From a virus (Duplodnaviria; Heunggongvirae; Uroviricota; Caudoviricetes), in the IMG/VR virus record IMGVR_UViG_3300029641_000003: 64,000 nt of DNA; one strand, given 5' to 3'. Of this stretch, positions 2,852 to 42,880 are shown in pieces (within the stretch, counting starts at the first letter, position 1; each line of letters begins with the position of its first letter). Under the pieces are notes generated by a model. That model had not been told where the DNA came from. It saw nothing but the letters and a program-made list of their open reading frames with translations, and did no database searches. The position numbers were made by a program, and so were the translations under genes.

Positions 2852-3813
2852 CCACTTTAACCGACAAAGAACTGATTAAAGAAATCAAAGAGCGCATAGG
2901 CAGTCTGGACGTGCGAGACAATATTGAGCGCCGTGCTTATGAAATTGCTCTGGCATCGCTGGAGGCAGAGCCTGTTCTGTATCAGTCCTGCACTCGCCCC
3001 ACCTGGAATAGCGGTGTTCCGTGGACGGAATGGAAAGAACGAAGTCGTGAGTGCTACGAAGACGATTTGCGCTTTACAGACACGCCTGACCATGCCGGTT
3101 GGATATACAAATGTCGAAAACTATATACCACTCCGCCAGCGCCGATAGCGTTAGAGGCCATTGAAAACGCAATTGAATACATCCGCAGTATCGCTTTTCA
3201 CATCAATGAAGACGATTACCACGGCAAGCATATTGCGTATTTCATGCGACAAGCATTGGCCTGGCTGGAAGGGCATTCATGCAGCGACGACAGACTGGGT
3301 AAAGCCGAGAATCAAACAGTACACGGCAACCAGGCTGCCGAATCCAATCGCGGTAATGAGTGGACCGGCAATCCTGATATTGATAACGCCATCATCATGC
3401 TCGATCGCATAGATACGCTGGAAAGTTGCGATGATGACCGTATTGAGGCGGTTAAGACTGTTTTGCGTAGACTGGCAGGCAACTCTCCGGTAATTCCGGA
3501 TGGTTTATCCACGGTATGCGCTGAGGCTTATCAGGTTGTAGGAGTTATGGCAGATGCGCTTGGTGTATTCGGTGATGCAGCAGTACAGAAAGTTCTGGAT
3601 AACCTGTCACAGCAAAAACTTGTTCACAGAGATGTGCTGCCGTTCTCGCTTCCGGTAACTCCGGATGGTTGGGTTATGGTTCCTAAACAGGTAACGCCGG
3701 AAATCAGCAACGCGATAAACGTTGTGGGTCAACGCTGTACATGCGGAAATTGCTCTCAGCGGTTGTGGGATTTATTACTCGACGCCACACAGCAAGGAGT
3801 TAACCGTGGCTAA
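2848..3813 (+). CDS. hypothetical protein
   Basis: 321-aa ORF, start overlaps upstream stop; N-terminal region paralogous to 2128..2640. Confidence 0.55.
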   Translation: MTTLTDKELIKEIKERIGSLDVRDNIERRAYEIALASLEAEPVLYQSCTRPTWNSGVPWTEWKERSRECYEDDLRFTDTPDHAGWIYKCRKLYTTPPAPIALEAIENAIEYIRSIAFHINEDDYHGKHIAYFMRQALAWLEGHSCSDDRLGKAENQTVHGNQAAESNRGNEWTGNPDIDNAIIMLDRIDTLESCDDDRIEAVKTVLRRLAGNSPVIPDGLSTVCAEAYQVVGVMADALGVFGDAAVQKVLDNLSQQKLVHRDVLPFSLPVTPDGWVMVPKQVTPEISNAINVVGQRCTCGNCSQRLWDLLLDATQQGVNRG

Positions 3814-3989
3814 CCTGCAACTTATCCTCAAAGGTGAAAAGATTTGAGGATTCGCATCATTAATAACACCGACAAACATCCGGATGATTATTTGGATTGC
3901 TCGTTAGCAGAGCGCGTGGAATTGATATAAGAGAATCTCCGCGCATCGGCAACACACAGCTAAATATGTTCGCAATAAAGGGTAAATCA

Positions 3990-4391
3990 ATGGCTAAATT
4001 TCGGAGAACTATTATTTTTCTGGCAATGTTATCTGCCTGCCATTTATCACATGCATCGGTTATTGTTGCAACCGCCGCAACAACGGCAGCAATTAGCGCC
4101 TCAGCCGCAAGCGAGCAGGAGCAACGCACTGCAATCAATGCATCCGCAAATACTACCACTGTAGCAGTCACGCAAGATAAGCCAAATATAGGCTTTGTTA
4201 CTTGCGGAAAACGGTATGGAGAGACGGTCGGTTCTCTTGGTTGCGCAGTGTGGCATGACGAACGAGCAGAAATTCCGTGGAAATCATGGCCTGGTTACAT
4301 TCTTGGCGAAAAGATACCCACCAGCTATGAAGTAAATGCTATTTCGTTCGATCAATATAACAGAGTCGCAACGGTCTACTTTTCTTATTAA
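3990..4391 (+). CDS. putative lipoprotein
   Basis: ATG at 3990; signal peptide with lipobox-like LSAC (MAKFRRTIIFLAMLSAC). Confidence 0.5.
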   Translation: MAKFRRTIIFLAMLSACHLSHASVIVATAATTAAISASAASEQEQRTAINASANTTTVAVTQDKPNIGFVTCGKRYGETVGSLGCAVWHDERAEIPWKSWPGYILGEKIPTSYEVNAISFDQYNRVATVYFSY

Positions 4392-4397
4392 CACGGA

Positions 4398-4697
4398 GTG
4401 ATTATGTGGCGCGGTAATAATCATGGCAGAAGCCATATGATACTTACCGAATATAAGCTAGACCACAAAACCAATAAATCGCGCTCAGTATATTTGCTCC
4501 GGCACAATAGCCGCGTAAGGAATACCGTGCTGGAGCAAAATCTGACCGTTGAAATGGATAATTTCGGGAATTTCAAGCCAACAATATCGCTTGATGATTT
4601 CCCTCGTGGTTTAAGCGAAAGAGAAGCAATGCTGAAGTTAGCAGAATGGCTACAAAGATTGAGCATTGTTATTGAAGATAACTGGAGTCAACCATAA
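4398..4697 (+). CDS. hypothetical protein
   Basis: 99-aa ORF; stop overlaps ATG of a downstream small ORF. Confidence 0.4.
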   Translation: MIMWRGNNHGRSHMILTEYKLDHKTNKSRSVYLLRHNSRVRNTVLEQNLTVEMDNFGNFKPTISLDDFPRGLSEREAMLKLAEWLQRLSIVIEDNWSQP

Positions 4698-4873
4698 TGA
4701 AAAACAGAAAGAAATTTTGGATTACTTTTTTGTTTGTATGCCTTTGCGGTTTATTTGTTTTATTAGCTGGTGGTGTTAAATGGGGTACGGTGGGGTGTGG
4801 TTTTTGGAGTGGGCTTACTCTTTTCGCAGCTTGGCTTATCGCCAACTTTGAGTCAGGCGGAGGGTATTGGTAA
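4697..4873 (+). CDS. small membrane protein (58 aa), absent from ORF track
   Basis: Read by eye: MKNRKKFWITFLFVCLCGLFVLLAGGVKWGTVGCGFWSGLTLFAAWLIANFESGGGYW; two hydrophobic helices; ATG overlaps upstream TAA. Confidence 0.35.
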   Translation: MKNRKKFWITFLFVCLCGLFVLLAGGVKWGTVGCGFWSGLTLFAAWLIANFESGGGYW

Positions 4874-4952
4874 GTGGTCTTATTCCCCACTTCATAACGG
4901 ATATCACGCTCGTGATAACGGATATTCCAATTTTGATAACGGATAAGGCCAA

Positions 4953-5162
4953 ATGAAGCATTTTTTAAGGTTGGCATTTGTTCTGGCGCTATTTGCTCCT
5001 CAGGCTGCAATGGCTGGAGAACAGCAACATTGCACAAAAGAGAATGAACACCCTTTCATCGTTATTCAATGTGATGACGGAACGGTGACAGTGGTTAATG
5101 TAAGAAATGACCGTGTAGCTGTATGCCGTAAAGGCGAACCATGCAAGGAAATAAAACTATGA
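4953..5162 (+). CDS. small secreted Cys-containing protein
   Basis: 69 aa; N-terminal signal peptide ending AMA; four Cys in mature part. Confidence 0.4.
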   Translation: MKHFLRLAFVLALFAPQAAMAGEQQHCTKENEHPFIVIQCDDGTVTVVNVRNDRVAVCRKGEPCKEIKL

Positions 5163-5956
5163 CTAAAATCACTAAATTCCGCATATCAGAGATTATTGCA
5201 CGCATCGAAATGTATGGACACGGCGCTGGATACACGGCAGATGAGGTATTGGAGCTTGCCCAAATAGCGTTAGCAACCTGCAAAGACGGTGAGAGTATAA
5301 AGCTGATTGACTTGTTGGTGCAGGAGCTGCCAAAGCGTGGAGGGTGGCCTGATGATATGCTCGATTGTCGCATGGTTAGAGAGGACTGCTGTGAACCATC
5401 ATATGGTTTCTTTGCTTTTGGCTCTGATCCAGCGAAAAGCCCGTGTGGGCGCAATTTTTGCCTTGAGGTCAGGCTTCCGATAAGTAACCTTTATCGCGAG
5501 GAATACACGGAAATAATTTCGCGCAAACAATACGAAGAGGCTCTTGAAGCATCCAATAAGTTAAATTTTGAGCAATGGCTGGGGCAACAACACGAAAAAA
5601 TCGACCTGGACTGCGGTTGTGTGTCTACTGAAACATTCATGCACTGGCTGCGGGTAGCCTATGAATCTGGCAACCGTCTGGATACTCATCCACAAGAGGT
5701 GCCGAAGCCAAGAGTAAGCACAACTCTGGAAAGGAGCTATCTTGAAACTGCATTAAAGATTAAGGCAGGCCATACGCTAGGCGTCATTGATGCCATGTTG
5801 GTTCATGAAATGGCGAAGGCTTTACTACCAGAAATTCCCGCGAATACGCCTACGCAAGTATTGGCGCTAATGAACAAACACAATCTGCCCAGGGAAGCAT
5901 TCTGGTGCTTTGATCATGAACAGTGGAGATACTCATGCTATGAATGCCGGTATTAA
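5141..5956 (+). CDS. hypothetical protein
   Basis: 271-aa ORF overlapping the upstream gene end. Confidence 0.55.
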   Translation: MQGNKTMTKITKFRISEIIARIEMYGHGAGYTADEVLELAQIALATCKDGESIKLIDLLVQELPKRGGWPDDMLDCRMVREDCCEPSYGFFAFGSDPAKSPCGRNFCLEVRLPISNLYREEYTEIISRKQYEEALEASNKLNFEQWLGQQHEKIDLDCGCVSTETFMHWLRVAYESGNRLDTHPQEVPKPRVSTTLERSYLETALKIKAGHTLGVIDAMLVHEMAKALLPEIPANTPTQVLALMNKHNLPREAFWCFDHEQWRYSCYECRY

Positions 5957-6012
5957 TGATGACTGGTGATCTTGTAGTTCTGGCTACCCGCAGTACCCCT
6001 GGTTACTACAAA

Positions 6013-6363
6013 TCATTGTAGTGGGTGGCATTTAACGAAATCGATCACCCTATTCTGAACTTCGGAAAGAAGGTCTTTTTCACGCGCCAGGACGTCAGGA
6101 TATTGACGTTCTGGCCTTACCAGATGCCGGAGCTTCCCATTAAGCAGAATGGCCTCAGAAAACACTTTTACGCTGTGCTTTATCCCCTCTGTTTCACTTT
6201 TCAGCGTCAAAATAAAGCGCAATTGCTTATTAGCCTGATTCAGATTCAATACACGAATTTGCAGTTCGTCTATGCTGTTTCGCAATGGGATTGATGCCAC
6301 CACACTGGTGCAGTCTCTGATTGTCTGAATTGAACGGCTAACATTGAGAACGTTATTGTGCAT
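6013..6363 (-). CDS. Lxr-like paralog
   Basis: 116 aa, same length as ORF 6672..7022 and sharing SRSIQTIR/TRSMQTIR and F-x-x-KS segments; inverted relative to it. Confidence 0.4.
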   Translation of the reverse strand: MHNNVLNVSRSIQTIRDCTSVVASIPLRNSIDELQIRVLNLNQANKQLRFILTLKSETEGIKHSVKVFSEAILLNGKLRHLVRPERQYPDVLAREKDLLSEVQNRVIDFVKCHPLQ

Positions 6364-6395
6364 GTGCCTGATCCACTAACTCCGGGAGGTTTCTT

Positions 6396-6647
6396 GTGTC
6401 AGATCGAAATATAGCAGCTAAAAGCCAGGAAGAGCGAGACAATGTGAACGTAGACCTTGCCGCCAGCGGCGTTGCTTACAAAGAACGGCTGAATATACCT
6501 GTGATTGCAGAGCAGGTGGCCCGTGAGCAACCGGAAAACCTGCGCGCCTATTTCATGGAACGGCTACGGCACTACCGGCAGTTAAGTCTCCAGTTGCCAA
6601 AAGGGAGCGATCCGGTGTATCAGAACGAGGATGCGCAAAAAAAATAA
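6396..6647 (+). CDS. hot: Hot, homolog of DNA polymerase III theta subunit
   Basis: 83 aa; [41 protein letters not shown] matches recalled HolE/theta pattern; GGGAGG RBS. Confidence 0.85.
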
Positions 6648-6671
6648 CGGCAAGATGGGGGAGACTTAAAC

Positions 6672-7022
6672 ATGCTTAACTATCACGACAACACGCGTTC
6701 TATGCAGACAATCCGCACCAATACAGCGGTGGTCGATAGCTTTCCTGTACATACTCAAGGCCGTGAAGATACCGTGGAAGTGCGACGCATGTTGTGTCGC
6801 CGGTCACCAGGCCACCAGCACTTCATCGTAACGTTTAAAAGCGATGTAGAGCGCGCCGAGAAAATCTCTAACTCCACATCTCTGGTTAAGCCATTGGCGG
6901 AGGTTATTGTGCGCAACAATAAGGCGCGCTTTGTCCTTGAGGAGCATCATTCTGATTTTAATGAAAAAATCGAGTCAAGCATTTTGCAATATATGAATGG
7001 CAAGTTCACGCCACCAATGTGA
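6672..7022 (+). CDS. lxr: Lxr-like protein
   Basis: 116-aa ORF in the hot-lxr-humD position of P1. Confidence 0.6.
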   Translation: MLNYHDNTRSMQTIRTNTAVVDSFPVHTQGREDTVEVRRMLCRRSPGHQHFIVTFKSDVERAEKISNSTSLVKPLAEVIVRNNKARFVLEEHHSDFNEKIESSILQYMNGKFTPPM

Positions 7023-7511: not shown

Positions 7512-7583
7512 GCTGCAAAGTGCTGGTGCTTTATGCCTGTGAAGTTTATAATTGTGTACACATAACGAGTACACGAGGTGTTT

Positions 7584-7805
7584 ATGCAATCCATTAACTT
7601 CCGTACCGCGCGTGGCAACCTTTCTGAAGTGCTCAACAATGTTGAAGCCGGGGAAGAGGTTGAAATCACCCGCAGAGGCCGTGAGCCAGCAGTAATTGTC
7701 AGCAAGGCTACTTTCGAAGCCTACAAAAAAGCGGCGCTGGATGCTGAATTTGCATCCCTGTTTGACACCCTGGACTCCACCAACAAGGAACTGGTTAACC
7801 GATAA
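7584..7805 (+). CDS. phd: Phd antitoxin
   Basis: [49 protein letters not shown] matches P1 Phd as recalled; ATG at 7584. Confidence 0.95.
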
Positions 7806-8185
7806 TGAGGCATATATCACCGGAAGAACTTATTGCGCTTCATGATGCGAATATAAACCGCTACGGCGGCCTGCCGGGAATGTCTGATCCGGGCAGGGCA
7901 GAGGCCATTATCGGGAGAGTCCAGGCCAGAGTTGTGTACGAAGAGATCACCGACCTTTTCGAAGTCTCCGCCACCTACCTGGTGGCAACGGCGAGAGGGC
8001 ATATATTCAATGATGCCAATAAGCGTACCGCGCTAAACAGTGCGCTGCTATTTCTACGCCGTAACGGTATACAGGTATATGATTCTCCCGTGCTGGTGGA
8101 ACTTGCGGTGGGGGCTGCAACTGGTGAAATCCCCGTATCTTCAGTAGCGGAAAAACTACGTGAACTATATGGTTCCAATATTTGA
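7805..8185 (+). CDS. doc: Doc toxin (Fic-fold)
   Basis: 126 aa, [22 protein letters not shown]; start overlaps phd stop. Confidence 0.95.
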
Positions 8186-18428: not shown

Positions 18429-19000
18429 AAAACCTCCCAGTCAGTAGCGATAATATCAACACCAGTTGCAAACCAGTCTGTCTGTGCCTGTAAATCCCCA
18501 TTCATCATTACCAGGCGAGGCATAACCATCACATCACAACCTTCAACAATATCGAATGCCTCTTCCGGCAGGAATTCGACGAGCTTTTCTTTGCTGCCAA
18601 CACTGCCACGGAGCATCGATATATAGCTCCCTTTAGGCCATGATGTTCGCCGGGCATCAAGCCCCTTCATCATCCAGTAAAAGGCCGATGAGAACGGGAT
18701 GTTCTTTTTGGCGATGAGCACGTTATTCGCTTCTGTGTACTTCAGGAACTTAATTAACCTTACCATTGACTCGGATAACGCAATGTACGGCTCATGATTG
18801 ATTGCTGACACGCTTACGCCGTGCAGTCCAACACTTACCACAGTCATATCACCGTTCTGTGCGGTTTCGATGTTGACGCCTTTACGAACTAACGCTGCAT
18901 AAAGCTCCTCGCGCTTTTGCGTCCAGCATTCTCGTCGCCCTATAAAGTCACTCAAAACGAGATCATCTTCTGAATACGCGTTATCGTTCGCCGTTAACAT
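18425..19000 (-). CDS. two-domain protein with C-terminal DUF2829/Tad2-like domain
   Basis: 191 aa; C-terminal ARRTSWPKGSYI ... TDWFATGVDIIATDWEVF resembles the 10121..10783 C-terminus. Confidence 0.55.
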   Translation of the reverse strand: MLTANDNAYSEDDLVLSDFIGRRECWTQKREELYAALVRKGVNIETAQNGDMTVVSVGLHGVSVSAINHEPYIALSESMVRLIKFLKYTEANNVLIAKKNIPFSSAFYWMMKGLDARRTSWPKGSYISMLRGSVGSKEKLVEFLPEEAFDIVEGCDVMVMPRLVMMNGDLQAQTDWFATGVDIIATDWEVF

Positions 19001-19454
19001 AACGTCTCCTTTTTTACACGCGCGACTATCCCCCGGCTGAACCGGTAGTGACGTCGTAACTTCGTATTAATTAAGGGTTACAGCCTGAGCGGCTATATGA
19101 TGAATTGAAAGGAGTTGTGGCGGTGGTGCCTCCACCTGCCAGGTTAGCCACGCCCGGCGACGACACTTATCAGAACGTAGTGAATGAAAATGGCTTCGTC
19201 ACGAGCGCATAGCCGCAATTACCACAACGGAGAAGGCGCTCGTATTAATTAAACACCTTTTCCTGTTGTACGCCGTGCTATTCCGGCTGTCACACCGAAT
19301 CGCCAGGATGGTGAGTCCCTGAGTCCGCTATCCCTCCAACGGTGACTTGCACATTCCGGCTACCTGGTGTGCCCATGCAGTGTTAGTAAGGCACCTAACA
19401 GCTACACCAGACCGCTAACGACGCATGTGCCATACGCCGTGTTACAACCAAATG

Positions 19455-28100: not shown

Positions 28101-31100
28101 TTGCTGGTACGTGTATTGACCAGTCCACCAGCGCCGTCTTCTTCGACCTCGTCTGCATCATCTGCCACTTTACCGCCAGCTACTTTTGGCAGGGCATCAG
28201 CAATAGCTTTTACCTTGTCTGCAAGCTCAACGGGGAACTGGAATGTAATCGCACTGGCATACAGATCCGGATCTATAGCAACCTTATCCATGTCGCGGAT
28301 GATGGAGAAGATGAAATCATCCGGTTTTTCGTTTGTGATATGCCCGTTTTCATCAACCGTCAGCGCATCTTTACTACTTAACTCCTGTGCACGCTTACGA
28401 AGTTCTTCATAAGCAGCCTCCTGCTCCCCTGTCATCGGGATCTGCAAGGTATTCTCGACAATATCAGGGATTTTAACCGTCGCCCCGACGTCCGCAGCAG
28501 TCTTCAGAGTAGTCCAGCGATGGAAAATACCACGCAGGCCATCAAGGTTCTGGAAGCCAACCAGCCCCTGCTTCTCTTCCACTTCCCCGGAAATTTTCTG
28601 GACCTGAACTGTGGCTGTTTTACCAAACACACGAACGAAATCATCAGGCGTAATGATGCCCATGCGCATCCACTCTTCCTGCGGAATGACAGTAGACAGC
28701 ATGTTGAAGGCATCAATCGGACTGTTCACCAGCGGTGTTGCCGTCAGCATGACTACACCACGCCCGTTGTTGCGTTTCATCATGTACGCAGCTTTTACAG
28801 CCATGTCGCGGGCCATCTTGGATACTGCCGGGTTAGGCAAATATGCCAGTTGTCCCGCTTCACGCCCGGCATTAAAGGAGTTGCGGTAGTTATGCCCCTC
28901 GTCGGCAATCACGCTATCGAAGTTCATATCCTCAAAGTACGGGATATTCTGCTTCTTCGTTGTACCGGTATTCGCGGCCTGATCCTTAATCTTGTTCTTC
29001 TTCTGCGCATCACGGTGTTTACCAGACGCCAGGTCAAGACGCCCCATTTCCACAGCATTAAAGACAGCTTGCTGTGAGTTCTCCTCGATGGTTTTTTCTC
29101 GTAGCGGGATAGACGCGAATTGTTCTTTTGTCATGATGACCGTTCGCCAATTTGACGACGGGATCATGTTCATGCGCTGAACGATAACGGCGCTGGCGGA
29201 CTCTTTCACAACATTTCTGGTAAGAGGCTGCCCGTTACTGTCGAGGCGGGGTTCGCCATTTTCATCAAGCACCGGCGCGGTCAGAATATTGCCGTCTTCA
29301 TCACGAACCTCATCCAGACCGATAAACATCATATTGGCGAAGGCATCAGCACTGTAGAAGCTCTGTGCCTCGTGATACCAGTTCTGATAAACCGCCTTCG
29401 GAACAACAATACACGTGCGTTTAGTGCGACCTGTTTCGAAGTTATACGCCTCAAGCGCAAGCGCAGTCGTGGTTTTACCCAGCCCGGTACCAAATCCCAT
29501 GATGCCGCGCCCATCTTCTGACAAGCGACGAACTTCTTCATTCTGATAAGTCAGAGGAATGCGCTTTCCACTAATCCCTTCCAGGCCAAGCGGTGCGTTA
29601 GAGTGCGTAAACGGAATGAAGCCATTGAATGCGTCGTTATAGTCACGGGCTATCTGATCCGCCTGCGGGTGGGTGCGTAACCAGTCGTTAAAACTAACTT
29701 CCAGTTGAGCAATTTTATCCAGGTACTCGTTAGCGTTCTGCCCACGCGGTTTAACACCGTTCAGGTAGTTTTCTAACTGGTTCAGGAAGCCGTCTTTATT
29801 GTTGGCCTTCTTGAACTCATTCCCGTTTTTGCCGTTTACGGTTCGTAGTTGATAGCCGGTAAATACCCCGTCCTTACCTTCGTAATCGTCCGGAGATACC
29901 AGAATGCCATCGACGACCTTCAGATCAGGTTCAGTGTACTTAAACTCGTCATAGCCCTGCTCTGCCAGGAACTCTTTTATCAAGCGGCGATCCAGCCAGC
30001 GGGCGTTCAGATTAACGGTGACTTTATTTAGTGGCGTGAAAATGCGTTTCTCTTCGATTTTCGCCAACTGACGCTCAAAGTTCGCTTTCTGCTCACCTGT
30101 TGACGCATCACGCCAACCCACCAGCAATGTTGTTTTGGTTGCAATATCGCCGCTGGTGGCGCGGTCCATCGGCAGCAGGCAGCCATACCCATCAATAGCG
30201 ATATCATCAAATTTCGCCAGGTATTCAAGGGCCGCGTCGTCGTCCTCTGGCAGTTCACCAGCAAACGCCTCACGAAAGTCGCCCAGCGTTATAGGATTAA
30301 GGGCTACATCACTGAAAAGATGTGCTATCACTTGTTCAGGACGTGTAAAGTCAATACCGGCAGCACCATCCGTTACATCAAGTCGCCCTGCCAGAAGGTC
30401 AGAAGTGGAACCATCCTGTTTCACATTGCCAGTGAACGTCATCCAGTTTTTAGCGCCAGCTTCTGCAAGCCCATTCAGCTTAATCGCGTGCGGTGGTCCA
30501 TACTTCGCAACTTCTGCTGCCGCCAGGCGGGATGCATCTGCCAGTTTGTCATCAACGTTCACCCCCAGGTTACGCAAATCAAGTGCCTTGTTGATCAACT
30601 GCCCTATCAACGCACCGCGCATAACGCGCTCCCTGTCTTTTTCTCGCTGTTTGCCAGCAAAGCGAATCATTGCTGCCACTTCATCACTGACAACCGATGG
30701 ATAGTCGGACGCGATCGCCGATATCTGGTCCCATGACAAAGCCAGAATCCCGTTTGTTGACTGGAACGCGATCTGCAGATCGCCAAACGTCGAAACACCA
30801 TATCGACTTACATCAAGCGCGGAGGATTTGGTTGTCGTGTCCTTAACCCATTTCAGACCATCAAACTCATGCCAGATACCGCCTACAAGGCGTTTATCGC
30901 CCACTTTCGCGCCCTGCCATGCCTGAGTAGTTACGCCGAGCAAATCCCAATTGATGCGACTATCAAAGCGACGAGATAGCGCGGTTTTCATCGACTCATT
31001 GGATACACGACCGTCTTTTTTCACCACCAGGGTATTGCGGAAGCTGGTGCGTTCCATGTCGCCGTAAACAAATCGCTTCCCTTCGGTTGTAAACCATTTC

Positions 31101-35398: not shown

Positions 35399-36397
35399 TC
35401 ACATCCTCTTAGACACAAAGATCAGCGGAGTCACCGTCTTGTTCTCTTTCACCGGTATTTCTTGTTGTTTATTGGCTGATATTGGCAGACCATAAGTGGC
35501 ATTAGCCCCCAGGGATTCAAGCATCGCTGCAACAATGCGTGCATCATCCTCTGACTGCATACGGCAGAGCGCCCGGCGCTGTTCTGTGCTGATAAAAACA
35601 GGCATTTCCTGGATAGCATCACGCAAAATACGGCGGCATTTCTTCGCGTTCTCCCCCTGGCTTTCCATCATCGCGGCCTGGTCGCGTAGTTTGTCGCGAA
35701 GCTGCATATTTTCCACTTCAAGATGTATCAGTTCCGACTCCAGAACTTCACGTTGTGCTGATTCGAGTATGGCTTGCTGACTCTTCATTGCTGAAAAGTG
35801 GTGAACCAGATCCGTAGCAGCATTATCGGTAAAACCTTGTTCGATAAGTGCCGCATGAATCGCCGCGTCGCGTTCTTCTGCTGATTCAAGCATCAGGCTT
35901 TTCTTGTCGAGGCTGATATAGTTAGGCACAGTTACGTAATCAAAACCGTGAAAAGACTTTACCAGGGATACAGAGTAATCTGGACCAGATGTAGCCCATG
36001 ACCAACCACCTGCGCCAGAATTAATCATACCCTGAACAATACGTCCGGTGTCCGTATCCAGTATTTCCTGTGTATGGGTAACAATGCCGTTGTCGTCAAT
36101 TGAAATGTCGATAGTCCTGTTTGACGGCACGTTCTCCAATACAACAGGCTTCCCATCTACCATCACAACAGAGACTTCCGGCAAGTCCAGGCTTTTCGTT
36201 TTGTTATAGTGCATCGCCCGGCGACCATGACCGTAATAACCATACATCTCACCCAGTGCGATACGCTCTTTTGTTTCTGGCGAGTTGAATGTGTCTCGTA
36301 CCGACTGGATAACGTAATTGCGATTGTTCTGAGGTGTGTGTTTGCGGATTTTCTCTACCAGGGAGAAGCGATCCGTAACGGTATTCAGTGATTGCAT
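35399..36397 (-). CDS. putative head processing protein (Pro position)
   Basis: 332 aa immediately downstream of the portal-size gene; coiled-coil C-terminal half. Confidence 0.4.
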   Translation of the reverse strand: MQSLNTVTDRFSLVEKIRKHTPQNNRNYVIQSVRDTFNSPETKERIALGEMYGYYGHGRRAMHYNKTKSLDLPEVSVVMVDGKPVVLENVPSNRTIDISIDDNGIVTHTQEILDTDTGRIVQGMINSGAGGWSWATSGPDYSVSLVKSFHGFDYVTVPNYISLDKKSLMLESAEERDAAIHAALIEQGFTDNAATDLVHHFSAMKSQQAILESAQREVLESELIHLEVENMQLRDKLRDQAAMMESQGENAKKCRRILRDAIQEMPVFISTEQRRALCRMQSEDDARIVAAMLESLGANATYGLPISANKQQEIPVKENKTVTPLIFVSKRM

Positions 36398-36410: not shown

Positions 36411-38096
36411 TTAATTATTGCTCATCACAAATTTTGCAAAGTTGATTAATTGTTCTTGCGTCCAGTTTTCCGGATCGTCACCGGACGACAACGGCGCGGA
36501 TTCGTACATACCATGCTCGTTGTTTTGCTCTGATTCATTCGCCTTAAACTCTTTGATCATTACGTTGAGAGTGTCATCGTCGATACGAAGCTGTTCGGTG
36601 AACAGATAACGCATAAACGCGTCGCTACCCGCCAGTTTCGGGTTGTTCTGGATCTGGTCCATTATTTGCGAGATGACAGCTACGAAGTTGGCGCGCGCAT
36701 CCAGCTCTCGGTTTTCCTCTTCCTGGATAGCTGTATTCATTGAGTTGAATTGCACGTCATAAGGACGGTTTTTTTCGGTGTAAACCTTCCCGTATTTATA
36801 AGCGAGGTGAATGTCATGAAGCCGATAAATAGTCCGCTGGGCGGCCTGTCTGATCCAGTTCGCGCGTAATGCGGCCTGGATAGCTGTTTGCTGCCAACCG
36901 CCTTCTCCAAGTCCACCACTCATCTGATCAGCCCAGCCAAGCATTGTTGCGTCAATACCGAGGCTTGCCGCGAGCTGTCGGAGATGAAACATAACGTCTT
37001 CGATACCACTGATATCTGCGGGTATAGATTGCGTATCAATGGTGATCCCGTTCTTCCCATCCCCCATGACGGGTATCAGATGGTTAAGTACAGATGGGAG
37101 AGCATTAGAATTAATCGACCGTTGCGCTACGAGGTCGCTATGACGCTTCAGTGCCTGGCTGACCCCGCGCGTATAATTCGCCGCGTTTACCGGATCTATC
37201 GTGTTCGTTGTGAGTGCAATCAGGCGATCAATTTTTGCAGCGTTGTTTCGCGTTGCTTTCAGCGCAGCAAGCGCGGCACATAAATTCAGGTAGGGTTCAT
37301 AACTGTATTCAAGAAACGACGTACCGTAGTTCTGCGTCTCCATTAACGGCTTGTCCTGCTGTTCACTAAGCAAGGAATAGCCTTTAGTGCCGTAAGTTAC
37401 TGGCATTACTTTATGCTGAGGCGTCCAGTACGGGTTTTTCATGGAAACCAGATTCCACGGTTCGGTTATAACTCTGCGCAAAGTATGCGTATCCAGAATG
37501 TAATCACCGCTGAATCCGACAAGTTGGCTACCGCGATAAAACTCCTGAACGAAATGAGGGAGCGTGTAATAGCTCGACTCAATTCCAGTTATCCCCTTCC
37601 CTTGCTCTGCATATGGACGGATATACGACACACCGAAAATAGCCATGATCATGGCCCACGATGGAAGGCCATCATTAATCATTGAGCTTAAATCAGCGGT
37701 CAATTCCTCACATCGACTTACAGCCTCCTTATCCGCCCCATTTTTCGGCGCGAGAATAAATGCGAGGCCTGTTTTTTTTGATGGAGCCAGAGAATGCGCA
37801 ATGTGAATGTTTAATGCTGTGGAGATAGTCGGACTTTTCGCCATCGTCTCCAGTATGTTGTATTTTTGCAGGCGGTCACTCGGTAATTCTGCCGATATAG
37901 ATACTGTATCCGCCGCGCTTGTCATGCCATCGCTATTGCTCCCCAGGATGCCAGGACGCAAGGCGGACAGGCCAGAACGAGCAACGACGCTATGCCCGCT
38001 CGCAAATACGACCGGATCGGCAGGCGTAACATCACCACCGCTGAAGGCTTTCTTCAATGCCGACAGAAAGCCCTTGTTTTTGTCTTTCGTTGCCAT
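36411..38096 (-). CDS. putative portal protein (Prt position)
   Basis: 561 aa; size and position relative to the Pro-like gene match P1 prt-pro. Confidence 0.5.
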   Translation of the reverse strand: MATKDKNKGFLSALKKAFSGGDVTPADPVVFASGHSVVARSGLSALRPGILGSNSDGMTSAADTVSISAELPSDRLQKYNILETMAKSPTISTALNIHIAHSLAPSKKTGLAFILAPKNGADKEAVSRCEELTADLSSMINDGLPSWAMIMAIFGVSYIRPYAEQGKGITGIESSYYTLPHFVQEFYRGSQLVGFSGDYILDTHTLRRVITEPWNLVSMKNPYWTPQHKVMPVTYGTKGYSLLSEQQDKPLMETQNYGTSFLEYSYEPYLNLCAALAALKATRNNAAKIDRLIALTTNTIDPVNAANYTRGVSQALKRHSDLVAQRSINSNALPSVLNHLIPVMGDGKNGITIDTQSIPADISGIEDVMFHLRQLAASLGIDATMLGWADQMSGGLGEGGWQQTAIQAALRANWIRQAAQRTIYRLHDIHLAYKYGKVYTEKNRPYDVQFNSMNTAIQEEENRELDARANFVAVISQIMDQIQNNPKLAGSDAFMRYLFTEQLRIDDDTLNVMIKEFKANESEQNNEHGMYESAPLSSGDDPENWTQEQLINFAKFVMSNN

Positions 38097-38328
38097 GATT
38101 CACCGCAAAAGGTTTCCGATTTCGTGGCAGCTTATCCAGTGTGTGATTTCATCAGTAATTTTTCGTTGTTTTCACTATTTGCTGATGTTTTTTCATATGC
38201 GGAAATGCTTTTCCAAAAACGCAACCACTAAACAAAGAAGTTATGTTTATAAACATTTTTGTTGTGTTTTATATCTTTTGTGTTATTATCCTTGTCGCCC
38301 ATGATGGATAAATTGCATAAGGAAACTT

Positions 38329-38511
38329 GTGAAGTATTCAGAGTTCAAACGCTGGTTAATCCAGCAAGGGGCAGAGTTCAGGAAAGCGCCAGGTGGCGGC
38401 AGTCATCAGAAAGTGAACCTGAACGGAAAGCGGTCGGTTTTCCCGGACCACGGTTCAAAGGAAATGCCTGAACCGCTACGCAAGAAAATAATGAAGGACC
38501 TGGGGCTTTAA
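38329..38511 (+). CDS. hicA: HicA toxin (mRNA interferase)
   Basis: 60 aa, GTG start with AAGGAA RBS; GGGSHQKV ... KIMKDLGL typical of HicA. Confidence 0.85.
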   Translation: MKYSEFKRWLIQQGAEFRKAPGGGSHQKVNLNGKRSVFPDHGSKEMPEPLRKKIMKDLGL

Positions 38512-38541
38512 GCCCCAGCCTTTTTCACTAGGAGCTTCTCT

Positions 38542-38973
38542 ATGTTTAACTATCCGGTAAAACTGGAGCGCGACGACAAAACCGGCGCGTATGTCGTATC
38601 ATGCCGCGACCTACCATTGTTTAATTCCGTGGGTGACTCAGTTGAAGAAGCGTTGCTTGAGGCTGGTTATGGATTGGTCGCAGCGGTTGCGATTGAGATT
38701 GAAGAACGCCGACCTGTTCCCACTGGTAGCGAGCCAAAAGAAGGTGAGTACGTTGTCTCTTTGCCAGTGCTACCAGCAATGAAGGCTGCACTCCACAACG
38801 CGATGATAGAAACCGGCACACGCAAAGCAGAGTTGGCGCGCAAACTCGGCAAAAATGGAACACAGATTGATCGGCTTCTCGACGTCGAACATTCATCGAA
38901 AGTTGAAACTGTCGAGCTGGCACTGCATCAACTGAATAAAAATATCGCCGTATCTGTCACACCAATGCGGTGA
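38542..38973 (+). CDS. hicB: HicB antitoxin
   Basis: 143 aa directly downstream of hicA; C-terminal HTH region. Confidence 0.8.
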   Translation: MFNYPVKLERDDKTGAYVVSCRDLPLFNSVGDSVEEALLEAGYGLVAAVAIEIEERRPVPTGSEPKEGEYVVSLPVLPAMKAALHNAMIETGTRKAELARKLGKNGTQIDRLLDVEHSSKVETVELALHQLNKNIAVSVTPMR

Positions 38974-39085
38974 CTGCTCCCCGCCCTGGCTGGGCGAGGA
39001 TTTACGGGGTATTTGTTAAAAACGCTCTATTCAAAGAAGAAATACCGAATCCCCCGGAGGTTATCCGGGGTGTCCGGTCGCCAGG

Positions 39086-40471
39086 TCAGGTTTCCAGCCC
39101 AAAATCGCTTTGTTCTGTTTTGGCTTCGAACATCGTGAAGTTAAGCCCTTTCCCCTCTCCATGTTCCAGTTCAATCTCATTAGAAACAGCGGTCAAAATA
39201 CTACGTAGATCAACATCTCCACCGCCGAACATATCGCCCAACGCCTGCTGTTTATGAATCAGTTCGTCGTTGATTTTTTGTGCCATTTTTTTGAATGCAG
39301 CCCCCATGCGCTTCGCGCTTCGATTATTTGCCACGATGAATAGCGCCAACGCCTCAGCTTCCGGCGTGCTATCACCGAAGAGTCCGCGCTGGGCTATCAC
39401 CTCTTCCACTGCCTGACCGTTGTCTTTGGCTTCACGAACAAGGTTAATCGCGTCCTGGAGTGCTGCTATAGCCTGTTTATCCAGACCGTTCACCTGCTCT
39501 ATACCATCAACCAGACCAGTTACAGCATCATGATGTGCATCGCCAGAAATCGACTGCATTTGCGCAAAGTCACTGGCTGCTGTATTAAGCGCGGTCAGGA
39601 TATTGCGCATTTCCGGATCCGGTTCTTCCGCCACAAGCCGAACAAGTCGCTCATCCTTATAGGCTTTGGCAAAAATCGCATTCTGAATGCGATCGATAAG
39701 CTGTTTCGTTGGACGTCCATCGGCTGTAAGCAAACCTGCCGTCGCGGTATCGCCTATTTCGTGCAAAAACGCACGAATAAACGCATCATTGGACCGCGCC
39801 AGTAGATTTCCATCATCTGAAGGATTAAATAGCGCCATGACGCTCTCAGTGAGAAATTGCGCATCCGCATACGCTTTCTCACTTGCAGCCATCTCTTGCA
39901 GATCGCTGATGTTTGAGTCGCGTGCAAATTGAGCACGATCAACGTCAGTGAGGCGCTCGCGAACCAGTACAGGCATCACCATTGCCCTGACGTCTTCGGG
40001 ATTAAGGCCAAACTCTTTAGCGTGATCGATAAGATATTGTCGGTAATCTTCAGCCTGCCCTTGTTCATAAGCACGCCAGATTCCCATGCTTCGACCATTA
40101 CCAGACTCAACGACATTATCCGGACCAACAATCGGGGAACCATGACTACTCATACCCGAATCAGTGAGTTGTGCCGGGCGTAAATTGGCGGCGATACGGT
40201 TAACCTGGAGCTTGCTTGACAGTCGGGTGCGATCGCGAGGCTGGAGTTCCTCCGGAAATGACGGATTTATACTTCCGTCCAGGTTGTTAGAAATGATGAG
40301 CTTTTTGGCATCAATAACCTTGAACGCTGTTTTAACTTCGTCGCCTTTGCTGGTGACGACATAGCTGCTACGCCCCAACTTCGTCTCTTGCTTTTCAAGA
40401 GATGACACCACAGCGATAACCCCCTCAATGTTCGCTGCGGCCAAAAGTGCTGATGTTACGTTTTGAGTCAC
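39086..40471 (-). CDS. hypothetical protein in DarA/Ddr head-protein operon
   Basis: 461-aa ORF downstream of darA-like gene, same strand. Confidence 0.5.
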   Translation of the reverse strand: MTQNVTSALLAAANIEGVIAVVSSLEKQETKLGRSSYVVTSKGDEVKTAFKVIDAKKLIISNNLDGSINPSFPEELQPRDRTRLSSKLQVNRIAANLRPAQLTDSGMSSHGSPIVGPDNVVESGNGRSMGIWRAYEQGQAEDYRQYLIDHAKEFGLNPEDVRAMVMPVLVRERLTDVDRAQFARDSNISDLQEMAASEKAYADAQFLTESVMALFNPSDDGNLLARSNDAFIRAFLHEIGDTATAGLLTADGRPTKQLIDRIQNAIFAKAYKDERLVRLVAEEPDPEMRNILTALNTAASDFAQMQSISGDAHHDAVTGLVDGIEQVNGLDKQAIAALQDAINLVREAKDNGQAVEEVIAQRGLFGDSTPEAEALALFIVANNRSAKRMGAAFKKMAQKINDELIHKQQALGDMFGGGDVDLRSILTAVSNEIELEHGEGKGLNFTMFEAKTEQSDFGLET

Positions 40472-40562: not shown

Positions 40563-40934
40563 TCACGCTGCATACCCGTTAGCTGAAACCCAGTTTACGG
40601 TCTGTTCTTTGGCCTGGTCGAGTGTCAAAAATTCACCAATATATTGAGATATGCCTCTCAAAGCATCGATGAACTCCATTTGTGATGATTTAGTAAATGC
40701 ACCACTAAGGAAGTCAGCAACAATTTTAGGCGTTTCTTGTGCCGCCGGTTGCACTTCCTCTTCTTGCTGTTGTGCTGGATTATTCGATGAACCAAGCCCC
40801 AGCTTCATCATCACTTCAACTATCCGCACGCCAATAGTGACACGTTGTACCGCAGTCGCGCTTTTTTGCGCTGACATCAGCTCAGACAGTTCTTTGCCTA
40901 AGCTAAGGCGCTCCGTTACTGATATTTTCACCAC
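40563..40934 (-). CDS. hypothetical protein (DdrA position)
   Basis: 123-aa ORF whose start overlaps the darA-like stop. Confidence 0.45.
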   Translation of the reverse strand: MVKISVTERLSLGKELSELMSAQKSATAVQRVTIGVRIVEVMMKLGLGSSNNPAQQQEEEVQPAAQETPKIVADFLSGAFTKSSQMEFIDALRGISQYIGEFLTLDQAKEQTVNWVSANGYAA

Positions 40935-42880
40935 ACGCCCCCTTGTTGTATCTCTGCCAGAATGTTGATCAGGTGATCGGCTGCCGCACCAACAAGTGAC
41001 TCGTTCTCATCATATCGACCTGCGTTGATAAGAACATTAGCTGCCTCCTGAATGCGATCAAACTCCGCTCTAATCACCGTCAAATCACGGGACGTAAACT
41101 GCAACGGCACGGATTTCAGATATTCCAGCGCATTGTCCGCCTCCTGATCAGCCTCACTAACTACTGGCCCATCTGAACCTGTATCAGACTCTTTGGGGGA
41201 TTCAGGTTCAGACTCAGGTTCTGGTTCTGGTACTGCTTCCGGTGCCTGATCTAATGTCTGTTCAGCTTCGACTACTTCTGATTGATTCTGAAGCGCGTCA
41301 TAGATATCCATTATAAAAAGGTTCTCCCCATCTCCAAGTGGATAAGCGACGTTAGGAAATGCTTTGCGGAAGAGGATTTTTATCTGCGCCTTAAAGGTTT
41401 TCAAGTCGCTTCCAAACAGATCAACATAGCCATCAATATGGTTCGACATACTGGACGCAACCAATTCGCCTGCAATCTCTTTCAATTCATCGTCACCAGG
41501 GAGATATAGCAACTCGTACTGACTGACTTCTTCGTCTGTCAGTTTGCGGTCATACGTAATGATTCCGTGACGAGCATATTCGTAATACGGATCAGCCTGA
41601 TCAGGACGGTCAAGTACAGCTTTATTTCCTTCAGGAACCGCACCAACACCCGCCGGGCGAGATTGGAGCGCATAGCGATATTTACCAACCTCCAGGGGAT
41701 CAGGACGTGATGCTGGTTGTGGCTCCTGTTCAGGCTGCGGCTGATCAGTTGGCTCAGGCTGGCCCGGCAACACATCCACTTTGTATTGATCAGCATTATG
41801 TTCACGATAGGCTTTAAGTAATTTGGTTGCAGCGTCCGCTGAACTCCCACCTTTAACAGCACTGACATCAATACTGAAATTGCCTTCTGGTGCCTCAATC
41901 GTGACAAAGCTATCACTGCCTGACGTGACATACTTAACTACAGCACCATTATCCAGCGTTGTTTGGCCTTCTGTAGCAAGATTATGTTTTATGTGTCGCA
42001 GTTGATCATTGAAGGCACGCTCTTTAGTTCCTTGGCTCTTAGCTGACAATAAATTATCGCGTTTAGCCTGCAATTCCGCGTTAAGGGCTTTTTGTGCGTC
42101 TAATTTATTCTGCATATCATTGAGTGTTGAACGTTTCTCTGCCAGCCCCCGCTGTGCGTCTTCAACCTGCTCAATCAGCACAGAACGTTCTTCTGCCAGC
42201 TTGTCGGCTTCATTGAGATACCCCTCAATATCAGCCTTCATTTTGTCCTGGCGCTCCTTTGATTTTTTGAATTTTGCACTGTTACGCTCAATGAGGTTAG
42301 AAAGCGCCTGACACACCTGGCTCAGAGATACATCACGCCCACCGATTGGCGCAACAACATGCGTAACGTTTCTTTTGTTAAGAAGAAACTGAAACGCAAC
42401 CAGCTCGTCATCCCCTTTAATTCTTGTGCCGTCTGCGGTTGGAGAATGGAAAATTATGCTTGTCGTTTGTCCATCGGTTAGAGGTATTTGTGCTGTCACA
42501 ACAGGGATATTAGCAACCCGGCGCACGCGCCCAATGATTGCCCCACCGATACTATTACGTCCGTCCTCATATTCACCTGCCTCATCCGTACCCGCAGCAA
42601 TGTCAGTGCCATTCAGGCCGCGATTAAGCGCCCGGACAAATGCTCGCATTGTTTGCGCTAACCGCAATTTTGTTGTGGTTATAGCTTCGAACATTGCCTC
42701 ATTGGTAGTTACCAAAATTTCGTTGCCCATATAGGCCAGCTCGATATCTTCCAGCGTCGCAGGCTCGATAAGTAAATCATCCTCGGTGATATCTTCCGCC
42801 ACCCAACGATTAGGCGTATATCCAGTGAGCGTATCTGCAAAAGTGGACTGGATATTTATTCGAATAGGTTTCTTTATCAT
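40928..42880 (-). CDS. darA: DarA-like internal head protein
   Basis: 650 aa, coiled-coil middle, Pro/Glu-rich linkers; lydA/lydB-like genes upstream as in P1 darA operon. Confidence 0.6.
   Translation of the reverse strand: MIKKPIRINIQSTFADTLTGYTPNRWVAEDITEDDLLIEPATLEDIELAYMGNEILVTTNEAMFEAITTTKLRLAQTMRAFVRALNRGLNGTDIAAGTDEAGEYEDGRNSIGGAIIGRVRRVANIPVVTAQIPLTDGQTTSIIFHSPTADGTRIKGDDELVAFQFLLNKRNVTHVVAPIGGRDVSLSQVCQALSNLIERNSAKFKKSKERQDKMKADIEGYLNEADKLAEERSVLIEQVEDAQRGLAEKRSTLNDMQNKLDAQKALNAELQAKRDNLLSAKSQGTKERAFNDQLRHIKHNLATEGQTTLDNGAVVKYVTSGSDSFVTIEAPEGNFSIDVSAVKGGSSADAATKLLKAYREHNADQYKVDVLPGQPEPTDQPQPEQEPQPASRPDPLEVGKYRYALQSRPAGVGAVPEGNKAVLDRPDQADPYYEYARHGIITYDRKLTDEEVSQYELLYLPGDDELKEIAGELVASSMSNHIDGYVDLFGSDLKTFKAQIKILFRKAFPNVAYPLGDGENLFIMDIYDALQNQSEVVEAEQTLDQAPEAVPEPEPESEPESPKESDTGSDGPVVSEADQEADNALEYLKSVPLQFTSRDLTVIRAEFDRIQEAANVLINAGRYDENESLVGAAADHLINILAEIQQGGVW

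Follow-up and report, generated by a model that had tools for sequence, protein, structure and literature searches.

A hicAB toxin-antitoxin pair at the ddrB-prt junction of a D6-like phage-plasmid

The stretch of DNA considered here (the window) comprises 64,000 nucleotides of the IMG/VR virus record IMGVR_UViG_3300029641_000003 (Caudoviricetes), and belongs to a D6-like, P1-related phage-plasmid that is approximately 84% identical to phage D6. An earlier note on this DNA had recognized a hicAB toxin-antitoxin (TA) pair at positions 38329-38973. These coordinates are exact, and the matches to Pfam, to PDB entry 6HPB and to PHROG all agree with the proposed identity. On balance we favor the view that hicAB is a functional operon forming accessory 'moron' cargo at a junction prone to recombination; by analogy with known systems of the family, and from its restriction to plasmids in E. 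coli, we consider it somewhat probable that it is a working TA pair acting in plasmid addiction and/or abortive infection. The two genes are:

38329-38511, plus strand: hicA, an open reading frame (ORF) of 60 amino acids with a GTG start, HicA-family toxin (predicted mRNA interferase)
38542-38973, plus strand: hicB, an ORF of 143 amino acids, HicB antitoxin

The layout is bicistronic, with hicA first, a spacer of 30 nt, and the Shine-Dalgarno sequence AGGAG ahead of hicB. HicA exceeds the cut-off of the Pfam model HicA_toxin (PF07927; 38.4 bits, with the cut-off at 27; E 1.3e-9), aligns over its full length (residues 1-60) to the HicA of E. coli K-12 (6HPB_A, E 1e-12), and falls in PHROG 353, 'toxin' (8e-15). 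In the alignment the segment GGGSH26 is placed over NGSNH23 of the K-12 protein and the active-site histidine is retained; we take the latter to be the histidine of the G-x-x-H motif, corresponding to His23 in K-12 and His24 in B. pseudomallei. The GGGSH motif is invariant in all the cassettes and chromosomal relatives examined. Residues 4-82 of HicB match the Pfam model HicB-like_2 (PF15970; 49.2 bits, with the cut-off at 30; E 6.2e-13), residues 3-137 align to residues 2-135 of K-12 HicB (6HPB_B, E 2e-15), and the protein falls in PHROG 497, 'HicB-like' (6e-35); both PHROG assignments are in the moron category. The N-terminus of HicB reads as a partial RNase-H-like domain, the part that binds HicA in HicAB systems. 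A C-terminal helix-turn-helix (HTH) is indicated by the match of residues ~84-137 to the HTH domain of K-12 HicB, and PHROG 1373, 'transcriptional regulator', matches residues 80-139; no HTH model of Pfam was matched by HicB at E 0.01. In the classification of Gerdes (2024), class 3 consists of hicA followed by hicB, with HicB bearing a C-terminal HTH (PMC10865869). By these sequence features the window pair is a classical type II hicAB of class 3, and RefSeq copies of the same plasmid already annotate the two genes as HicA and HicB.

Both genes are intact and under strong purifying selection. Comparison of the window with four diverged cassettes (synonymous rate, dS, between 0.45 and 2.9) yields ratios of nonsynonymous to synonymous rates (dN/dS) of 0.02-0.07 for hicA and 0.02-0.04 for hicB, and the GTG start, the GGGSH motif and the upstream region are kept in all five aligned cassettes. 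The possibility that the pair is a decayed remnant is ruled out by this purifying selection together with the conservation of start, motif, upstream elements and flanking hairpins.

The earlier note had also suggested a later insertion on the strand opposite to the morphogenetic genes, between the portal gene and a head-protein operon. As far as the strand is concerned this is borne out: hicAB is opposite to all the flanking genes, each of which lies on the minus strand, with a divergent region of 232 bp toward prt on one side and a convergent arrangement with ddrB on the other. The description of the site was correct on its left side, where the portal gene is found, and has to be amended on its right side, where the neighbor is ddrB; this gene closes the darA operon, which is an anti-restriction/internal-head-protein operon and not a generic head-protein one. 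The elements of the locus are:

35399-36397, minus strand: pro, flanking gene
36411-38096, minus strand: prt (portal), flanking gene
38097-38151, minus strand: conserved prt leader, 55 nt upstream of prt, kept in every cargo variant and forming the left edge of the hotspot
38152-39124, no strand assigned: inserted or variable segment, 973 bp replacing 48 bp of the empty-site relatives
38229 (or 38256)-38974, plus strand: core mobile cassette, with promoter region, hicA and hicB
39086-40471, minus strand: ddrB, with a ddrB-ParB domain match, last gene of the darA operon
40563-40934, minus strand: ddrA, flanking gene
40928-42880, minus strand: darA, with Pfam DarA_N and DarA_C

In most D6-like relatives the gap between ddrB and prt is only 64 bp long (for example in CP088573.1, NZ_AP027414.1 and the Salmonella record CP092511.1). 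When the window is compared by blastn with two empty sites (L003 and L008), with D6 and with L015 (pB2C_96), homology ends at 38151 (between 38149 and 38152, according to the relative) and is picked up again at 39125 (39120 in D6); it is because homology stops and restarts at these positions that we describe the event as 973 bp replacing 48 bp. The right edge thus lies at about codon 449 of ddrB, whose last 13 codons and stop (39086-39124) come from the inserted segment. The left breakpoints of four different contents (window, empty site, D6 and L015) fall within a few bases of each other, just upstream of the prt leader. Neither terminal inverted repeats nor a target-site duplication were found at 38151/38152 and 39124/39125, and there is no transposase gene among the ORFs at the insertion in the window; a cassette borne by a transposon or insertion sequence (IS) was rejected on these grounds. 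A foreign origin could not be read from base composition either, as the coding GC content (~51%) equals that of the flanks and AT-rich sequence (35%) is limited to the promoter region. On either side of the core cassette there is an imperfect direct repeat of 13 nt (38228-38240 and 39027-39039), probably by chance.

The distribution of the segment was determined in 5,426 complete E. coli genomes, 99 of which have this backbone region, always on plasmids. The hicAB segment is present in 15 of the 99 (~15%), in 15 plasmid places and no chromosomal one. Ten of the carriers are of the window type; the other five are of a type represented by L006, in which hicA is interrupted 3' of TTCAG, at its nucleotide 13, by a TnpB-only element of the IS200/IS605 family. 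The positions of this secondary insertion into hicA are:

L006 (NZ_CP085065.1), 4951-6156: IS element
L007 (NZ_CP099353.1), 3542-4873: IS element

In L006 a fusion ORF (VGSLARQGGEQS-QFKRWL...) bears the HicA annotation, and L007, a plasmid of E. marmotae, has in addition lost the remainder of hicA and 96 nt from the start of hicB. The module is therefore not a constant feature of the site in all relatives, and in the window HicA is intact, with its active-site histidine and the signature of purifying selection.

Within the D6-like group, the cassette is ~99% identical (at least 98.5%) across backbones in which ddrB is 82-86%, ddrA 67% or prt 87% identical. A mosaic of this kind suggests that exchange was recent and took place by homologous recombination within the genes on either side, in line with the gene flow reported for phage-plasmids (PMC10879196). 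A clear recombinant, as judged from its alleles, is L008 (NZ_AP027414.1), which has the prt allele of the window (99.8%), an identical leader and an empty site, together with a ddrB that is 85% and a pro that is 83% identical; its breakpoint is at the same place as the left end of the inserted hicAB segment. Arrival of the cassette would most likely have occurred by homologous recombination in conserved flanking genes between D6-like plasmids, not by transposition. That the insertion is a late one, as first proposed, is thus upheld by the comparison with related phage-plasmids: gaps of mostly 64 bp, 15 carriers out of 99, and a cassette of ~99% identity set in flanks of 67-87%. Beyond this group, the core cassette recurs on other replicons at 77-87% nucleotide and 87-97% amino-acid identity, namely in the N15-like (Ravinvirus) Enterobacter phage MStein-2023a, in 47-50-kb plasmids of Enterobacter and Citrobacter, and in ~360-kb conjugative plasmids of Klebsiella pneumoniae, where it lies inside a TA cluster beside phd/yefM-relE and prlF. 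Assemblies from many Enterobacterales contain more distant homologues, at 51-90% amino-acid identity, several of which are chromosomal.

The junction that receives hicAB also receives other genes. It is usually empty (roughly three quarters of the relatives), and at least five alternative contents were recognized. In phage D6 it holds a DUF4145-like gene, whose match to DUF4145 is below the Pfam threshold, and a gene without assignment. In L015, at 3039-3617 on the plus strand, and also in L014, there is an opposite-strand pair coding for a protein of 100 amino acids and an XRE-annotated protein of 54; its layout is TA-like, with no family match for the 100-aa protein and no detectable homology. 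This is followed in L015, at 3652-6976 on the minus strand, by a long P1-type DdrB (1013 aa) and an hxr-like gene (PHROG 2292). In L006 (7108-8336) and L007 (5529-6757) the space between hicAB and ddrA holds an HTH regulator (152 aa) and a DUF3944 protein matched by PADLOC as JukA (3e-71); in L007 the two genes stand where ddrB would otherwise be, and in neither plasmid can a JukB partner be seen beside the JukA-like gene. Only a 31-nt remnant of the ddrB 3' end is left beside the hicAB segment, which implies that this arrangement derives from the window type. The DdrB of the window is itself of a short form (461 aa, compared with 995 aa in P1 and 1013 aa in L015), and the C-terminal tails of the short variants differ among cargo types. 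The alternative contents in D6-like relatives, together with the accessory genes found in P1, indicate that the end of the darA operon is a cargo site across the group. The ddrB-prt junction may be a dedicated cargo-exchange hotspot of D6/P1-type phage-plasmids, in which small TA, defense or regulator cassettes are swapped by recombination in the flanking homologous sequences.

The control region of hicAB and the hairpins around its genes were mapped as follows:

38261-38289, plus strand: candidate hicAB promoter, with an extended -10 element TGtTATTAT (38281-38289) and a weak -35 element TTGTGT/GTTGTG (38261-38267)
38286-38311, no strand assigned: candidate HicB operator, inverted repeat TTATCCTT-N10-ATGGATAA overlapping the -10 hexamer
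38500-38527, plus strand: terminator-like hairpin between the cistrons, CTGGGGCTT-T-AAGCCCCAG followed by CCTTTTTCA, with the hicA stop codon in the loop
38981-39001, plus side, 3' of hicB: GC-rich hairpin
39044-39078, minus side, 3' of ddrB: GC-rich hairpin, an inverted repeat followed by UAUUUCUUCUUU

The candidate promoter is conserved in all five diverged cassettes; since a strict scan for the sigma-70 consensus did not call it (the single match falls inside hicB), we infer it from sequence conservation alone. In four of the five cassettes the inverted repeat that overlaps it has kept its place, at -43 from the GTG. HicB autoregulation is known for the family (PMC10865869), and on this basis it is plausible that the repeat serves as the HicB operator. 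The half-site motif of this candidate operator (TTATCCA / TGGATAA) occurs a third time in the prt leader, at 38132-38138, probably by coincidence, because L008 has the same leader and no hicAB. A perfect 14-bp palindrome, ATGTTTATAAACAT, is found at 38243-38256, at the left edge of the core-cassette homology; it is not kept in the other cassettes.

The hairpin between the cistrons was matched in a terminator scan and folds with -20.3 kcal/mol, its stem consisting of 8-9 bp with 6 GC pairs. Among the five plasmid- or phage-borne cassettes, four show no difference in this region, and the Klebsiella copy has one substitution, in the coding arm; the non-coding arm and the T-run are invariant in all five, even though nearby synonymous sites are near saturation, with a coding dS of 0.45-2.5. 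K-12 hicAB lacks the hairpin, as do most of the chromosomal relatives that were open to examination (25 loci were considered, in 11 of which the ORF finder failed to locate hicA). A structural-RNA role assessed by covariation was not supported, because the chromosomal relatives mostly have no hairpin rather than compensatory changes, and no Rfam family was matched between 37900 and 39300 on either strand at E<=1. The element could be an attenuator or an RNA-stability element. In particular, it may be a translation-coupled attenuator, in which the ribosome that ends hicA would melt the hairpin and let transcription reach hicB, so that synthesis of the antitoxin would be tied to translation of the toxin; this would be new for hicAB, for which such a device is hitherto undescribed. 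The two hairpins beyond hicB were seen in folds of both strands, and the second contains a terminator-like match on the minus strand (39057-39045); they lie back to back and probably act as convergent terminators, keeping the transcription of hicAB and of the darA operon apart. If they do terminate, read-through from the darA operon into prt-pro, which seems possible in the empty-site relatives, would be lost in the window. No convincing match to a P1-type late promoter was found when the 55-nt prt leader was compared with LPpro, LPlyz and LPdar, using the -22 box AAGTGAyTw from the P1 annotation.

These features can be interpreted in the light of what is known of the family. HicA cleaves mRNA independently of the ribosome, and HicB, the Lon-sensitive partner, uses its N-terminal domain to bind and block HicA and its HTH to repress the operon (PMC10865869). 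By analogy, the HicA of the window would be a ribosome-independent RNase cleaving mRNA and tmRNA, HicB would neutralize it by direct binding of its N-terminal domain, and HicB dimers, bound to the palindrome by their HTH, would act as repressors of the operon. HicB would also be the more labile of the two, being degraded by Lon, and any interruption in the synthesis of a Lon-sensitive HicB would set HicA free. In a daughter cell that has lost the plasmid prophage, HicB would no longer be replenished and free HicA would cause arrest (post-segregational killing), so that hicAB would serve as a third addiction system beside phd-doc and higBA. Shut-off of host transcription by an infecting phage could trigger the same circuit and lead to abortive infection.

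The other systems that enter this argument are only in part inside the window. The earlier note had counted two modules, hicAB and phd-doc; the latter is indeed present, at the following positions:

7578-7805 and 7805-8185, plus strand: phd-doc, with Pfam PhdYeFM and Fic/DOC

The count itself was low. The hicAB region is 99.6% identical to that of the 91.7-kb E. coli plasmid NZ_CP104667.1 (L004), and this plasmid also carries higB/higA, at record positions 29906-30618, outside the window, plus two partition systems. D6-like plasmids are reported to carry phd-doc and higAB, and are regarded as stabilized by them (PMC6799933). At 18545-19120 of the same record, roughly the same coordinates in the window, a gene is annotated as 'MW1434 family type I TA system toxin'. 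Since the annotations of NZ_CP104667.1 (the MW1434 toxin and higB/higA) add to the systems of the window, the element may have three type II TA systems and one of type I.

Several observations weigh against a working addiction or abortive-infection module. About 85% of the relatives do without the cassette, and the interruption of hicA by an IS in five of the 15 carriers shows that the toxin is dispensable. With phd-doc, higBA and two partition systems already present, little stability would be gained from hicAB, and addiction may not be the selected function. The existence of chromosomal homologues means that the HicAB family is not plasmid-specific. Finally, a conserved terminator-like hairpin between toxin and antitoxin is atypical, and does not fit a simple model of a co-transcribed operon.

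Alternatively, the main role of hicAB could be anti-phage defense of the lysogen, by abortive infection or superinfection exclusion, with the junction acting as a defense hotspot like those of P2/P4-type prophages; we regard this as a possible explanation, though a doubtful one. It is favored by the nature of the alternative cargo (the HTH and JukA-like genes, the DUF4145-like gene with its companion, the pair of 100-aa and 54-aa XRE proteins) and by the other addiction systems that the plasmid already has; moreover, the contexts of HicA have been argued to point to anti-phage roles (PMC10865869), and defense genes are enriched among the genes exchanged between phage-plasmids and plasmids (PMC10879196). 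On the other hand, JukB is missing beside the JukA-like gene, the match to DUF4145 does not reach the threshold, and approximately three quarters of the relatives have an empty site. PADLOC also finds nothing for HicA and gives a marginal match for HicB (PDC-M64C, E 0.0063), a result that says little on defense because PADLOC has no generic hicAB model. The two furthest-reaching readings, a dedicated cargo hotspot in which hicAB is mainly anti-phage and a hairpin that is a translation-coupled attenuator, are in our judgment unlikely.

The patchy distribution, the ~99%-identical cassette in diverged backbones and the tolerance of an IS-disrupted hicA in a third of the carriers (5/15) would also be expected of a selfish passenger that benefits neither plasmid nor host, the loss of the segment being counter-selected locally and its spread being due to recombination among co-resident D6-like plasmids; the same view has been raised for the D6-like prophage as a whole (PMC6799933). 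The long-term purifying selection on both proteins argues against it, insofar as it suggests that they work. Purifying selection is however silent on the beneficiary, and this makes a selfish passenger hard to separate by sequence alone from a module serving addiction or abortive infection; we consider the selfish explanation quite unlikely. Even less credit, and in fact very little, is given to a co-option of hicAB in the life cycle of the phage-plasmid, whereby prt-pro or the darA operon would be under the control of HicB, as an Xre-type repressor, or of HicA, as an RNase, or else late antisense transcription from the darA operon would silence hicAB and free HicA during lytic growth. The orientation of hicAB, which diverges from prt across 232 bp and converges on the darA operon, and the copy of the half-site motif at 38132-38138 would suit such a role; but L008 has an identical prt leader without hicAB, the back-to-back hairpins appear to insulate both transcription units, most relatives form virions without the cassette, and the same cassette is found elsewhere in unrelated contexts.

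A hicAB operon acting in addiction and/or abortive infection, carried as cargo, adds one such module to phage-plasmids of E. coli and Salmonella that are stable, widespread and sometimes resistance-bearing, and taken alone it matters little; the sub-lineage that carries it may be slightly harder to cure or better shielded from other phages. The map of the junction, from the 55-nt prt leader to codon ~449 of ddrB, defines a natural cargo slot in D6-like elements that is usable for engineering or for surveys of defense genes. A literature search found no paper on hicAB in D6/P1-like phage-plasmids. The hicAB of the window is an ordinary one, of a well-known type, and only the cargo slot and the intercistronic hairpin might repay further work.

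Among known systems, the closest in organization is the HicAB of E. coli K-12 (hicA/yncN-hicB/ydcQ; PDB 6HPB/6HPC), with which the window pair shares the gene order, the GTG start of hicA and a two-domain HicB; the sizes are also similar (60 versus 58 aa for HicA, 143 versus 138 aa for HicB). The window proteins are, however, clearly diverged from those of K-12 and plasmid/phage-borne, and the window differs from K-12 in its promoter region, in the GC-rich hairpin over the hicA stop, and in a three-residue insertion, APG, before the GGSH motif. The N15-like and Klebsiella cassettes correspond to that of the window from ~70-100 nt 5' of hicA to the hicB stop, with the promoter, the inverted repeat and the intercistronic hairpin kept, and in the N15-like elements the cassette is likewise opposite in strand to its neighbors; they differ in replicon and site, the pieces 38152-38228 and 38975-39124 being found only in D6-like carriers. 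With P1 phd-doc and D6 higBA, hicAB has in common that it is a type II TA system on a low-copy plasmid prophage with a presumed role in post-segregational killing. It differs from both in its toxin, a dsRBD-fold (double-stranded RNA-binding domain) RNase in place of a Fic/Doc kinase (Doc) or a RelE/ParE fold (HigB), and in having the toxin gene first; furthermore, phd-doc and higBA are the systems reported for D6-like plasmids (PMC6799933), whereas hicAB is present in only ~15%. As in the D6-like elements, the darA operon of phage P1 ends with ddrB(-hxr) and is followed by accessory genes and an IS (isaB, IS1, isaA); P1 has no hicAB there and its prt-pro lies elsewhere, with the late promoter LPpro, whereas in D6-like elements prt comes directly after ddrB.

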